This document shows positions 42,337 to 47,835 of a stretch of DNA of 64,000 bases, in pieces. The notes below the pieces were generated by a model. It was not told the DNA's origin, did no database searches, and saw only the letters and a program-made list of their open reading frames with translations. A program made the translations under genes and the position numbers. Origin of the DNA: Escherichia coli (lineage in GTDB: Bacteria > Pseudomonadota > Gammaproteobacteria > Enterobacterales > Enterobacteriaceae); the NCBI RefSeq assembly GCF_003334355.1, contig NZ_QOWP01000010.1; one strand, 5' to 3'. Numbering within the stretch: the first letter of the stretch is position 1; each line of letters starts with the position of its first letter.

Positions 42337-44391
42337 ATGGAACTGAAAGCGACAACGCTTGGAAAACGTCTGGCACAGCACCCTTACGATCGGGCGGTGA
42401 TCCTCAATGCCGGGATTAAAGTCTCCGGCGATCGCCACGAATACCTTATTCCTTTCAATCAATTACTGGCGATTCACTGTAAGCGCGGTCTGGTATGGGG
42501 CGAGCTGGAATTTGTACTGCCGGACGAAAAAGTGGTGCGTCTGCACGGCACCGAATGGGGCGAGACGCAGCGTTTTTACCATCATCTTGATGCTCACTGG
42601 CGGCGGTGGAGTGGCGAGATGAGCGAAATTGCGTCTGGTGTTTTACGCCAGCAACTGGATTTGATTGCCACGCGCACTGGAGAAAATAAATGGCTGACGC
42701 GTGAGCAAACCTCTGGCGTTCAGCAACAAATCCGCCAGGCTTTGTCGGCGTTGCCGTTGCCGGTTAACCGACTGGAAGAATTCGATAACTGCCGTGAGGC
42801 GTGGCGTAAATGTCAGGCCTGGTTGAAAGATATTGAAAGCGCTCGGTTGCAGCATAACCAGGCGTATACCGAAGCCATGCTTACCGAGTATGCGGATTTT
42901 TTCCGCCAGGTCGAGTCTTCACCGCTGAATCCGGCGCAGGCCCGGGCAGTCGTTAATGGCGAGCATTCTCTGTTAGTGCTGGCAGGTGCAGGAAGCGGAA
43001 AAACGTCGGTGCTGGTGGCCCGTGCAGGCTGGTTGCTGGCGCGTGGTGAAGCGTCCCCTGAGCAAATTTTATTGCTGGCGTTTGGTCGCAAAGCCGCTGA
43101 AGAGATGGACGAGCGGATTCGCGAACGGCTACATACCGAAGACATTACCGCACGCACGTTTCATGCGCTGGCGCTGCATATTATTCAGCAGGGCAGCAAA
43201 AAAGTTCCGATAGTCAGCAAACTGGAAAATGATACCGCTGCCCGTCATGAACTCTTTATTGCTGAGTGGCGCAAGCAATGCAGCGAAAAGAAAGCGCAGG
43301 CGAAGGGCTGGCGGCAATGGCTGACGGAAGAAATGCAGTGGTCAGTGCCAGAAGGTAACTTCTGGGATGATGAAAAATTACAGCGTCGCCTTGCCTCTCG
43401 CCTCGATCGCTGGGTAAGTCTGATGCGGATGCACGGTGGTGCACAGGCAGAAATGATTGCCAGTGCACCCGAAGAGATTCGCGATCTGTTCAGTAAACGT
43501 ATCAAGTTGATGGCCCCGTTATTAAAAGCCTGGAAAGGTGCGCTGAAGGCAGAAAACGCTGTCGATTTTTCGGGCCTTATTCATCAGGCGATTGTGATTC
43601 TGGAGAAAGGTCGCTTTATCAGCCCGTGGAAGCATATTCTGGTTGATGAATTTCAGGATATCTCGCCGCAGCGGGCAGCGTTGTTAGCGGCATTACGCAA
43701 GCAAAACAGTCAGACGACGTTGTTCGCTGTTGGTGATGACTGGCAGGCGATTTACCGATTCAGCGGTGCGCAAATGTCGCTCACCACCGCTTTCCATGAA
43801 AACTTTGGTGAAGGCGAACGCTGTGATTTAGACACGACTTACCGTTTTAACAGTCGTATCGGTGAGGTGGCAAACCGGTTTATTCAGCAGAACCCAGGCC
43901 AGCTGAAAAAGCCGCTAAACAGCTTAACCAATGGAGACAAAAAAGCCGTCACGTTATTGGATGAGAGTCAACTTGACGCTTTGCTGGATAAGCTCTCTGG
44001 TTATGCCAAACCGGAAGAGCGCATTCTGATCCTGGCGCGTTACCATCACATGAGGCCTGCCAGCCTGGAAAAAGCGGCAACACGCTGGCCGAAGTTGCAA
44101 ATCGACTTTATGACCATTCATGCCAGCAAAGGGCAACAGGCGGATTACGTCATCATCGTTGGCTTGCAGGAGGGAAGTGATGGTTTTCCGGCTGCGGCGC
44201 GGGAGTCGATTATGGAAGAGGCGCTACTGCCACCGGTTGAGGATTTCCCGAACGCTGAAGAACGGCGGTTAATGTACGTGGCGCTGACCCGGGCACGCCA
44301 TCGGGTATGGGCACTGTTTAACAAAGAGAATCCCTCTCCCTTTGTGGAAATACTGAAAAATCTGGATGTGCCGGTGGCGAGAAAACCGTAA
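42337..44391 (+). CDS. helD: DNA helicase IV HelD
   Basis: ORF 42244..44391; recognised start MELKATTLGKRLAQHPYDRAVILNAG at ATG 42337; UvrD-like Walker A VLAGAGSGKTS. Confidence 0.94.
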   Translation: MELKATTLGKRLAQHPYDRAVILNAGIKVSGDRHEYLIPFNQLLAIHCKRGLVWGELEFVLPDEKVVRLHGTEWGETQRFYHHLDAHWRRWSGEMSEIASGVLRQQLDLIATRTGENKWLTREQTSGVQQQIRQALSALPLPVNRLEEFDNCREAWRKCQAWLKDIESARLQHNQAYTEAMLTEYADFFRQVESSPLNPAQARAVVNGEHSLLVLAGAGSGKTSVLVARAGWLLARGEASPEQILLLAFGRKAAEEMDERIRERLHTEDITARTFHALALHIIQQGSKKVPIVSKLENDTAARHELFIAEWRKQCSEKKAQAKGWRQWLTEEMQWSVPEGNFWDDEKLQRRLASRLDRWVSLMRMHGGAQAEMIASAPEEIRDLFSKRIKLMAPLLKAWKGALKAENAVDFSGLIHQAIVILEKGRFISPWKHILVDEFQDISPQRAALLAALRKQNSQTTLFAVGDDWQAIYRFSGAQMSLTTAFHENFGEGERCDLDTTYRFNSRIGEVANRFIQQNPGQLKKPLNSLTNGDKKAVTLLDESQLDALLDKLSGYAKPEERILILARYHHMRPASLEKAATRWPKLQIDFMTIHASKGQQADYVIIVGLQEGSDGFPAAARESIMEEALLPPVEDFPNAEERRLMYVALTRARHRVWALFNKENPSPFVEILKNLDVPVARKP

Positions 44392-44422
44392 GAAACAGGT
44401 GGCGTTTGCCACCTGTGCAATA

Positions 44423-44881
44423 TTACTTCAGACGGTCCGCGAGATAACGCTGATAATCGGGGATCAGAATATCGACCGCGTCGTTGAAATGCGGCGACTG
44501 GATTATGAAGTCTGCCGTTGCCACGTTGGTGGCGACCGGAATGTTCCATACCGTCGCCAGACGCAGCAAGGCTTTCACGTCAGGATCGTGCGGCACGGCA
44601 TTTAGTGGATCCCAGAAGAAAATCAATACATCAATTTTCCCTTCTGAGATCAATGCGCCAACCTGCTGGTCACCCCCCATTGGGCCACTCAACATCGCGT
44701 TGACGTTCATGCCGGTCGCGCGGGAAATTAAGTTACCGGTAGTGCCTGTTGCATACAGTACGTGTTGTTCCAGTAACGGTTGATGCCGTTCCACCCAGCT
44801 CATCAGCATTTGTTTGCAGTGATCGTGTGCCACCAGCGCAATATGTTTCCGCGCAGGTAAAGTGCGAGTCGTCAGTTCCAT
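44423..44881 (-). CDS. mgsA: methylglyoxal synthase MgsA
   Basis: ORF 44423..44890; recognised start [27 protein letters not shown]; 152 aa. Confidence 0.95.
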
Positions 44882-44976
44882 AATGTACATCCGTAGTTAA
44901 CTTTCCTACAGATTACTGTAAGCACTTATCGCTGCAAGATAAAGACCGAAAAAGCCTGCGCACAGGCACAAAAATC

Positions 44977-45639
44977 TCAGGAAGATGGTTGTTTTTCCGC
45001 CCACTGCAGGAAAGTATTTCGCGTTTGTGGGTCAGCCAGTTTAAACCAATACTTCAGCCGTTGTTCTGTGAGCACCTGAGACTGCGGTGGAATAGCATCC
45101 AGCTCGGAAACACCCGAAAGCAGCGTACTGTCATCTGCCATCATCGTGGCAAATTGCGGTAGTGAAGCGCGTTTCGCGGATTTGTTATAGCGTTCAACCT
45201 CGACCTCATAATCAATCGTTTTTGCCGTTGAGGTAATGGCGAGAATATCCAGCTTTACCGGAATCGGCGTCGCATCGCCATCCAACAATTCAAGGCGCGG
45301 CGCGGCATCAAAATGGTTAGCTTCCCGCTCATTCTCCAGGCGAGGCAGGCGAAAATTGACCTGGTTGATGAGCTGGGTATTAAAACTGACCACCAGCGGT
45401 GGGGAGATATACAGCCGTTCTTCACTATTGGAAAGATGAATCGTCTTCTCAACGCGAAACACTAACTGATGCGGTCCATTATCCAGTTCAATGCTGTCCG
45501 CACCGCGCAGCAGAGAGCTGGAAACCTTCTTGCCGTCGAGTACCAGAAGATCGACATCGGTTGAAAGCCGCAGCGTGGTGGCAAAAACGGATACCGGCAA
45601 ACATAATGCAATCAAGGTGGTCACGATGCCGGTTTTCAT
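44977..45639 (-). CDS. yccT: secreted protein YccT (UPF0319/DUF2057 family)
   Basis: ORF 220 aa with signal peptide [20 protein letters not shown]. Confidence 0.88.
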
Positions 45640-45811
45640 AGGTAGCTCCTGTCAAAAGACCGCCCGAATAATAATGTGTCAAAATTTTTCTTTAATCATA
45701 CTTACTAACATATAGACATATTTCCCGCTTTTGCTCTCATTCATTCGTATTAGCTGCATGGTTGGCATGTCGGCTTTGTCGTACACTTTGTTAAACAGTC
45801 TGGAGGAAATA

Positions 45812-46225
45812 ATGAAAGAAACCGATATTGCAGGCATTTTAACGTCCACTCACACCATTGCGCTGGTGGGGGCAAGCGACAAACCCGATCGTCCCAGCTA
45901 TCGCGTGATGAAATATCTACTCGACCAGGGGTATCACGTCATTCCGGTTTCGCCAAAAGTTGCCGGCAAAACGCTGCTGGGCCAGAAGGGGTATGGCACG
46001 CTGGCAGACGTTCCGGAAAAAGTCGATATGGTCGATGTTTTCCGTAATTCAGAAGCGGCGTGGGGCGTGGCACAGGAAGCTATTGCCATTGGCGCGAAAA
46101 CCCTCTGGATGCAACTGGGGGTGATTAATGAGCAAGCGGCAGTACTGGCACGGGATGCCGGGTTAAATGTGGTGATGGATCGCTGCCCGGCTATTGAGAT
46201 CCCTCGCCTGGGCCTGGCCAAATAA
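45812..46225 (+). CDS. yccU: CoA-binding domain protein YccU
   Basis: ORF 45731..46225; recognised start [30 protein letters not shown] (Rossmann-like CoA-binding signature); 137 aa. Confidence 0.88.
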
Positions 46226-46262
46226 AAAATCCCCGGAAGGCAAAAACCTTCCGGGGATTTGT
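46222..46262. terminator. bidirectional intrinsic terminator between convergent yccU and hspQ
   Basis: A6, hairpin tccccggaagg-caaaaa-ccttccgggga, then ttt. Confidence 0.7.
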
Positions 46263-46269
46263 TCAGGGA

Positions 46270-46644
<375 letters not shown>

Positions 46645-47835
46645 TTACATGACGCGACAGGCAAACCCTTTCAGATATAGCCCTTCCGGATAGGTAGCGA
46701 TCACCGGATGATCGGCTGCCTGACGGAACTGCTCTATAAATTGTACATCACGACCGGCATCAATTGCGGCATCCGCGATGATTTTCTGAAATAAATCGCT
46801 GGTCATCAGACCGGAACAGGAGAAAGTCAGGAGAATACCGCCTTCATTCAGCAGCTGAATCGCCAGCATGTTGATGTCTTTATAACCACGACACGCGCCC
46901 ATCAACTGGCTTTTATTCTCAACAAACTTCGGCGGGTCCATCACGATAACGTCAAATTTTTCACCGCGATCGCGATAAGTACGCAGCAATTTAAAGACAT
47001 CATCACGGACAAACTCAGCCTTGCTCAGATCCAGTTTGTTCAGCTCAACGTTCTGCCGTGCAATATCCAGCGCTTCCTGGGAGGTATCAACGCTGACAAC
47101 CTGGCTGCAACCGCCCATCAGTGCCGATACGGCGAAACCACCGGTATAGGAGAAACAGTTCAGCACACGTTTATTTTCAACGTAGCGGCGGGTAGCCAGG
47201 CGGCTATCACGCTGGTCCAGGTAGTAGCCCGTTTTGTGTCCGTGCTGAATATCCACCAGCAGTTTCATTCCGTGTTCTTCAATCGGCAGCAGGGCAGGTG
47301 GCAACTCGCCGGTGACGGGGCCCTGGGTCAGCTCCATTCCTTCTTTTTTACGTACCGCGACGTCGCTGCGATCGTAAATCGAACATTCCGGGTACAGCGT
47401 TTGCAGGGCACTAATTAATGCCGCGCGCTGATATTCTGCCCCAGCACTCAGCAGTTGCAGCACCAGAAAATTACCGAAACGATCGATAGTAATACCCGGC
47501 AGGCCATCAGATTCTCCGGCGATTAAACGATAGCTGTCGAGGCCATCTTTTTGCGCCAGCCAGTCACGCCATTTTTGTGCTTGTTGCAAACGGCGGGAAA
47601 AAAAAGCAATGTCGATAGACTCAGACGGGTCAAACGTCCAGACGCGCGCCCGGATTTGCGAAGCTGGCGAATAAGCGCCGCGTGCTAACCATTTTCCCTG
47701 ATGATCAACAATATCGATGGTTTCACCGAGGCTGGCTTTACCTTCCATGCGGGCAACGGCCCCGGAAAAGACCCACGGATGGCGACGAAGTAATGATTTT
47801 TCGCGCCCTTTGGCTAACACTAAACGTACACTCAT
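46645..47835 (-). CDS. rlmI: 23S rRNA m5C1962 methyltransferase RlmI (YccW)
   Basis: ORF 396 aa; N-terminus [26 protein letters not shown]; SAM-methyltransferase region (…[10 protein letters not shown]…). Confidence 0.93.

Follow-up and report, generated by a model that had tools for sequence, protein, structure and literature searches.

The closest described counterpart of the first of the two genes studied here is csgI of Escherichia coli K-12 (NCBIfam NF047712; DUF2057, UPF0319), which was characterized under the name yccT and renamed by Sano et al. in 2023 (PMC10002515). yccT is induced by CsgD, an activation stated both in that study and in a published regulator table. YccT-FLAG was recovered in the periplasmic fraction, and loss of the first 20 residues abolished its effect (PMC10002515). 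Deletion of yccT lifted the paradoxical block in curli formation that is due to CsgD overproduction, and purified YccT inhibited CsgA polymerization in vitro (PMC10002515). When overproduced, YccT repressed transcription of csgD and csgBA; this effect required the signal peptide and EnvZ, went along with an increase in phosphorylated OmpR, and involved neither Cpx nor Rcs (PMC10002515). Most of the CsgI phenotypes were obtained with plasmid overexpression of CsgD or YccT (PMC10002515). CsgC, encoded in csgBAC, is likewise small, CsgD induced, and periplasmic, and it blocks CsgA polymerization as well. For Salmonella YccT, in which cleavage is predicted between residues 20 and 21, a different role has been reported, in peroxide stress and with cytoplasmic interaction partners. 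On the transcriptional side, Conway et al. [quoted passage not shown]

For the second gene, yccU, the closest described system is Qad of Salmonella Typhimurium. Yeom and Groisman (2019; PMC6719616) gave the name qad to a gene (STM14_1223) that adjoins hspQ in convergent orientation. Purified Qad strongly raised the Pat- and acetyl-CoA-dependent acetylation of HspQ and left that of PhoP unaffected (PMC6719616). Acetylation of Lys96 shields HspQ from Lon and ends Lon activation; HspQ accumulates, and ClpS is inhibited (PMC6719616). The effects of qad on Hha and Oat in Salmonella require hspQ, lon, and clpS (PMC6719616). This function has been shown in Salmonella only: the RefSeq product of yccU in E. 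coli MG1655 reads "putative HspQ acetyl donor," and a paper from 2024 still labels the E. coli protein uncharacterized. More distantly, YccU shares the fold family PF13380 with the single-domain proteins PH1109 of Pyrococcus and TT1466 of Thermus and with the N-terminal domains of NDP-forming acyl-CoA synthetases and of Pat/PatZ. The PDB titles of PH1109 and TT1466 read "hypothetical protein" and give no physiological role. HspQ, to our knowledge, is not to be expected in Pyrococcus and Thermus.

Results and discussion

Two known genes back to back in a conserved neighborhood

We analyzed a stretch of 64,000 nucleotides of E. coli DNA (here called the window). The yccT (csgI) coding sequence (44977 to 45639, minus strand) specifies a protein of 220 amino acids, and that of yccU (45812 to 46225, plus strand) one of 137; an earlier note on this DNA had given the same outer limits and protein lengths, in agreement with the open reading frames. 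The same note had them diverging from a region of 170 bp. The divergence is correct, and the regulatory spacer between them (45640 to 45811) counts 172 bp, with a GC content of 38% versus 51% for the window. yccU starts with an ATG located six bases 3' of a GGAGG (45802 to 45806). A 164-codon frame opening with TTG at 45731, which would make yccU longer, was rejected as a mechanical ORF call: conservation collapses 5' of the ATG, the GGAGG precedes that ATG, and the solved protein 2DUW aligns from residue 1.

The segment has the order helD-mgsA-yccT-yccU-hspQ-rlmI-yccX of a K-12-type E. coli chromosome and differs from MG1655 by substitutions at 4 of the 6001 positions compared. The encoded CsgI, signal peptide included, is 100% identical to that of MG1655, and its gene has the K-12 surroundings and promoter region; beyond these 4 substitutions in 6 kb, no difference from the K-12 system was found. 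To compare neighborhoods, we collected loci with a 9-sequence alignment, an alignment of 72 sequences being too diverse, and kept 80, all from Enterobacteriaceae. A search of 5426 complete E. coli genomes found the yccT-yccU stretch in every one of them, and the gene order around it was the same in 80 of the 80 enterobacterial species loci; both are therefore real genes and no chance reading frames.

The earlier note had also held that neither gene has an established role. This is outdated, as yccT was described as CsgI in 2023 and yccU is the ortholog of the Salmonella qad gene described in 2019; published or database functions thus exist for yccT and, largely, for yccU. Both genes are already described in the literature and in RefSeq, and the finding itself is ordinary. 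Behind the CsgI assignment and behind the Qad assignment stands the work of one laboratory each.

Treating yccT and yccU as a pair, as had been proposed, is misleading, the partners mgsA and hspQ lying on the outer sides. We think it quite probable that the two genes are halves of two separate known modules, csgI-mgsA and yccU/hspQ, which merely have a divergent promoter region in common. In the first module, csgI and mgsA would be transcribed from a stationary-phase promoter with a start near 45701, which CsgD would activate through a box at 45719 to 45732 and OmpR would repress by binding over the core promoter (45680 to 45732). CsgI, exported by the Sec pathway, would block amyloid polymerization of CsgA in the periplasm. 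Once abundant, it would also raise phosphorylated OmpR through EnvZ and switch csgD off, and CsgI would in this way feed back negatively on curli formation. In the second module, cytoplasmic YccU would bind acetyl-CoA and make Pat/PatZ act efficiently and specifically on HspQ Lys96. The acetylated HspQ would escape Lon, cease to activate it, and inhibit ClpS, and proteolysis would thereby be tied to carbon status.

Several observations were counted against the interpretation as two separate modules. On the csgI side these were the overexpression-based phenotypes, the peroxide role in Salmonella, the weak OmpR peak, the CsgD box confined to Escherichia, and the occurrence of DUF2057 genes beside mgsA or a porin gene far beyond the Enterobacteriaceae; on the yccU side they were Q or R at residue 96 of HspQ in 31 of 79 species that retain a highly conserved YccU and the close structural homologues of YccU in Pyrococcus and Thermus.

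YccU and its convergent neighbor hspQ

The CoA-binding fold that had been attributed to YccU was borne out by a match to Pfam CoA_binding_2 (PF13380) at 2.3e-41 over residues 14 to 130 and by 93% identity to 2DUW, a solved Klebsiella protein. Among single-domain proteins in the PDB, YccU matched PH1109 (2D59) at 2.3e-27 and TT1466 (1IUK) at 7.5e-25. Unlike the NDP-forming acyl-CoA synthetases and Pat/PatZ, it lacks ATP-grasp, ligase, and GNAT domains. YccU also aligned with residues 14 to 96 of PatZ, the N-terminal CoA-binding domain (34% over 85 residues; E = 4e-10), an alignment which suggests that Qad might bind to Pat or imitate a portion of it. The patZ gene lies outside the window and is present in MG1655.

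The functional partner of yccU, hspQ, occupies 46270 to 46587 on the minus strand; its Lys96 codon (46300 to 46302) shows that the residue acetylated in Salmonella is present in the HspQ of the window. The two convergent genes have in common a bidirectional terminator with a 15-bp stem (46227 to 46260), to which sub-threshold Rfam matches to NsiR1 and His_leader were confined. hspQ adjoined yccU convergently in 79 of the 80 loci. Qad of Salmonella Typhimurium has the same single CoA-binding domain and the same position as convergent neighbor of hspQ, and YccU of Salmonella enterica diarizonae and arizonae was 90.5 to 92% identical to the protein of the window. By transfer from Salmonella, we infer that E. 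coli YccU would carry the Qad role.

Residue 96 of HspQ varied among the enterobacteria. Of 79 species, 48 had K at this position, 18 had Q, and 13 had R; the surrounding sequence (from TIR) was nearly constant in a gap-free alignment. In the species with Q96 or R96, which include members of Buttiauxella, Phytobacter, and Silvania as well as Lelliottia sp. WAP21, YccU was still 86 to 97% identical; overall its median identity of 93% equaled that of RlmI and exceeded those of MgsA, HelD, and CsgI. Because YccU conservation extends to the species that have Q or R in place of Lys96, acetylation of HspQ Lys96 is, judging from these alignments, not likely to be the only function for which YccU has been selected. 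Further leads concern Cys125 of YccU (the cysteine of an RC pair), which is kept in Pyrococcus PH1109, and a report that a Cys-directed cross-linker trapped YccU on thioredoxin 1 in living E. coli cells. Conservation in the Q and R species, retention of Cys125 as far as the archaea, and the thioredoxin capture together suggest a second role of YccU beyond HspQ Lys96, one tied to CoA or thiol chemistry.

Taken further, these observations would fit a YccU that is mainly a general CoA-linked protein, serving in CoA or acyl-CoA buffering, in delivery to several enzymes, or in cysteine redox chemistry, with HspQ Lys96 acetylation as one lineage-restricted use. We consider this possible, though with odds clearly against it. 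The K/Q/R variation alongside a well-conserved YccU, a conservation on a par with that of RlmI, the solved single-domain homologues from Pyrococcus and Thermus, Cys125, the thioredoxin capture, and the prediction of SdaB as a YccU partner in a co-evolution analysis all point in this direction. The Salmonella experiments point away from it: the effects of qad on Hha and Oat vanish once hspQ, lon, or clpS is missing, and PhoP acetylation is independent of Qad (PMC6719616). So does the presence of hspQ as neighbor in 79 of 80 species, and in the species with Q or R other lysines of HspQ could be acetylated. We keep the yccU/hspQ module as the preferred interpretation, with the reservation that neither published role, that of CsgI or that of YccU, is likely to be complete.

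The distribution of K, Q, and R at HspQ residue 96 is new in this analysis. It mirrors in nature the acetyl-mimicking and nonacetylatable mutants made experimentally, and, combined with a conserved YccU, it offers a ready comparative test for other clients of Qad.

CsgI, mgsA, and the reach of the curli function

In RefSeq, yccT bears the name csgI, with the product "curli synthesis inhibitor" in MG1655. The protein matched Pfam DUF2057 over profile positions 1 to 192 of 192 (1.7e-48), the NCBIfam equivalog NF047712 (curli synthesis inhibitor) with 384.1 bits (cutoff 300), and NF002967 with 404.8 bits (cutoff 189). Residues 1 to 20 (45580 to 45639, minus strand) form a Sec signal peptide with cleavage before TTLRL. 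The N terminus is Sec-like, with Lys2, a hydrophobic core, and V-F-A ahead of the cleavage site, and Ala20 was almost invariant among 72 aligned homologues. Together with the full-length DUF2057 match, these features confirmed the earlier description of a secreted protein of a DUF-only family. Assignment as a lipoprotein was rejected, as IALC is no lipobox. An AlphaFold model (pLDDT, 88; pTM, 0.71) comprised a beta-rich domain (residues 21 to 132), a disordered linker (residues ∼160 to 185), and a conserved C-terminal helical hairpin bearing the motif YWF..AD..TR..FL.WA. In the comparison of enterobacterial species, CsgI was the fastest evolving among six neighbor genes (median identity, 76%).

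mgsA, coding for methylglyoxal synthase, follows at 44423 to 44881 on the minus strand (RefSeq coordinates) and is co-transcribed with csgI in stationary phase. Directly 3' of the csgI stop codon lies a weak hairpin followed by a T-run (44954 to 44972, minus strand), probably a leaky terminator. The order rlmI-hspQ-yccU<>csgI-mgsA-helD was retained in 77 of the 80 species loci, the other three lacking outer-end genes only, and in 80 of 80 mgsA was the next gene after the DUF2057 gene on the same strand. More distant DUF2057 contexts were sampled singly; two of the contigs, L085 and L088, end before the next gene becomes visible. The adjacency of DUF2057 gene and mgsA recurred in sampled homologues of 42, 36, 34, 33, and 28% identity, some of them without yccU. 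In two homologues of 25 to 27% identity, the DUF2057 gene was followed by a Porin_4 gene, and in one distant homologue it was followed by an Impact_N gene. In more distant genomes lacking yccU, hspQ or a transporter operon stood directly before the DUF2057 gene. The linkage between DUF2057 genes and mgsA down to 28% identity is new in this analysis; that of csgI and mgsA points to a possible link of methylglyoxal metabolism with a periplasmic protein that counters amyloid formation.

DUF2057 proteins have also been reported from Vibrio, Haemophilus, and Aggregatibacter. The family is small, with 424 representatives at 50% clustering in a search of 1.84 billion proteins. Curli, as far as we know, are absent at least from Pasteurellaceae. 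Given the mgsA linkage at low identity and the presence of the family in the curli-lacking Pasteurellaceae, a curli-specific function is unlikely to have been the ancestral role of DUF2057, and the family as a whole is probably not curli specific. We tentatively put forward, as a view that has a real if minor chance of being right, that an hspQ-(yccU)-DUF2057-mgsA arrangement is older than the link to curli and that both published names describe lineage-specific facets. DUF2057 would then have an envelope function tied to methylglyoxal or overflow metabolism, and YccU would have a second role in CoA or thiol chemistry that is free of HspQ Lys96. The envelope and methylglyoxal part of this proposal follows from the mgsA linkage down to 28% identity and from the porin gene found in more distant marine gammaproteobacteria.

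A related possibility is that the main role of CsgI itself is a general one in the envelope, as a periplasmic holdase or by modulating EnvZ/OmpR and the composition of the outer membrane, and that curli inhibition is a side effect which shows up for the most part when the protein is overproduced. The dependence of the phenotypes on overexpression would agree with this, as would the 40% lower growth under osmotic stress when yccT is overexpressed (Seo et al. 2017), the induction of Salmonella yccT by H2O2 and the peroxide sensitivity of the mutant, and the detection of YccT beside DegP in the Aggregatibacter exoproteome. The family, moreover, is small (the 424 representatives given above) yet reaches taxa in which the gene stands before mgsA or Porin_4. 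Nevertheless, we find this account improbable. Deletion of yccT specifically lifts the curli block that CsgD overproduction causes, the purified protein inhibits CsgA polymerization in vitro, neither Cpx nor Rcs takes part, and the promoter is under CsgD control. In addition, a transposon screen in uropathogenic E. coli yielded Tn5 insertions in the yccT-yccU spacer that gave white, curli-negative colonies, which would be explained by de-repression of csgI or by its expression through read-in. We retain the published assignment of CsgI as a curli inhibitor within a csgI-mgsA module.

The leads on csgI-mgsA and on HspQ residue 96 are modest and should concern mainly those who study bacterial proteolysis or the regulation of curli and biofilms.

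The divergent spacer and the csgI promoter

Seo et al. (2017) found that OmpR binds the yccT promoter and that the yccT transcript is ∼2.9-fold up in an ompR knockout. Their ChIP-exo peak P8 for the yccT transcription unit (U00096.2, 1027037 to 1027089; distance to the transcription start site [TSS], −5; mode, Rep) was transferred to the window by adding 777 (to U00096.3) and then subtracting 982134, which places the repressing footprint at 45680 to 45732. The peak is weak, with a signal-to-noise ratio of 3.07.

The strongest phylogenetic footprints of the spacer lie beneath the OmpR footprint. In an alignment of 69 distinct spacers, the best-conserved block, TGTCTATATGTTAGTAAGT / TGTCTATATGTTAGTAA (45700 to 45718, minus strand), showed at least 95% identity, and we regard it as the probable −10 region and start of the stationary-phase csgI-mgsA promoter. 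The TSS distance of −5 given for the ChIP-exo peak implies that csgI transcription would start at ∼45701. From this position, TCTATATG may be read as a sigma-S-like −10 element of the csgI promoter. An OmpR molecule placed across the core promoter, that is, repression by occlusion, would fit the repression of csgI. A second conserved block, GAAAAATTTTGACACATTA / GAAAAATTTTGAYACATT (45672 to 45690, minus strand), belongs to the csgI 5' leader and lies partly within the OmpR footprint.

The CsgD-box consensus reportedly put forward by Ogasawara in 2011 is AAAAGNG(N2)AAAWW. At the upstream edge of the OmpR footprint, AAAAGCGGGAAATA (45719 to 45732, minus strand; approximately −31 to −18 relative to the csgI start site) matches it exactly. 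This was the single exact match to the consensus when both strands of the window were scanned, and shuffled sequences gave a mean of 0.31 per window. Among the 69 aligned spacers, the box was exact only in Escherichia. As a predicted site, the match carries low to moderate weight as evidence. A position of −31 to −18 is unusual for an activator. That the conserved blocks of the spacer coincide with the OmpR footprint and the CsgD-box match is new in this analysis.

A yccT-yccU functional pair co-regulated from the common spacer is very improbable: the divergent layout and the spacer length (149 to 190 bp; mode, 172 bp) recur in all 80 enterobacterial species compared, and the two genes had figured among listed CsgD targets and been examined side by side (PMC10002515), but deletion of yccU, unlike that of yccT, left the CsgD-induced curli block in place (PMC10002515), distant genomes without yccU have hspQ or a transporter operon directly before the DUF2057 gene, CsgI is periplasmic and YccU cytoplasmic, and the documented partner of each gene (mgsA or hspQ) is on its outer side.

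A sigma-70 scan found no promoter in the spacer; its two matches both fell within the yccT coding sequence, a count equal to the shuffle expectation. An Rfam scan of 44300 to 46700 (E ≤ 1) placed no RNA family on the spacer. Toward yccU, a conserved block, CGTACACTTTG / AAAGTGTAC (45780 to 45790, plus strand), lies ∼20 to 30 nucleotides 5' of the ATG; no good −35 was seen at a spacing of 16 to 18 bp from the TACACT within it, which might serve as a yccU −10 element. Upstream of the CsgD box, finally, a conserved block of the form (CC)ATAC-N5-ATGAGRGCA (45733 to 45750, minus strand) contains in most genera an inverted repeat, CATAC-N4-GTATG, that is degenerate in E. coli, and this CATAC/GTATG block is a candidate operator.

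YccU and HspQ

Comparison with MG1655 patZ (locus L082, 3954-6611) showed that YccU (window 45812-46225) and the CoA-binding domain at the PatZ N terminus are homologues, with 34% identity across an 85-residue alignment (E = 4e-10). PatZ is the acetyltransferase that YccU is proposed to assist. At HspQ residue 96 (codon at window 46300-46302), 79 enterobacterial species (loci L001-L080) exhibited natural variation, with lysine in 48, glutamine in 18, and arginine in 13, while the flanking residues were nearly invariant across the same species. Glutamine and arginine are exactly the experimental acetyl-mimic and non-acetylatable substitutions, respectively. In Salmonella HspQ, residue 96 is a regulatory acetyl-lysine (PMC6719616).

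Comparison of a 6-kb stretch between the window and MG1655 revealed four single-base differences (42681, 42720, 44251, and 46102), and therefore the window derives from a close relative of K-12 MG1655, not from MG1655 itself. The YccT, YccU, MgsA, and HspQ proteins did not differ between the two.

Context of csgI

Among the sampled loci, a methylglyoxal synthase gene lay directly downstream of the DUF2057 gene (the family of CsgI, or YccT) in homologues with identities as low as 28% (L083, L084, L086, L087, L089, and L093), and a porin gene (Porin_4) was located downstream in the most distant homologues (L090 and L091). The former arrangement pairs a periplasmic protein with a cytoplasmic enzyme of a glycolytic bypass.

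Immediately upstream of the csgI promoter, most Enterobacteriaceae carried a CATAC-N4-GTATG inverted repeat (block compared in L005-L080), which may act as an operator for some regulator. In the E. coli counterpart (window 45733-45750), one arm of the repeat was altered by a T-to-A change (GAATG).

In several E. coli genomes, the region aligned as two pieces, spanning ∼233 additional bases, and a second, truncated "methylglyoxal synthase" open reading frame of 45 amino acids was located in the gap between csgI and mgsA (e.g., locus L094, 878-1015, of strain AH21, NZ_CP081711.1; corresponding window region, 44423-44976). The extra bases appear to be a tandemly duplicated copy of the csgI-mgsA junction together with the 5' end of mgsA.
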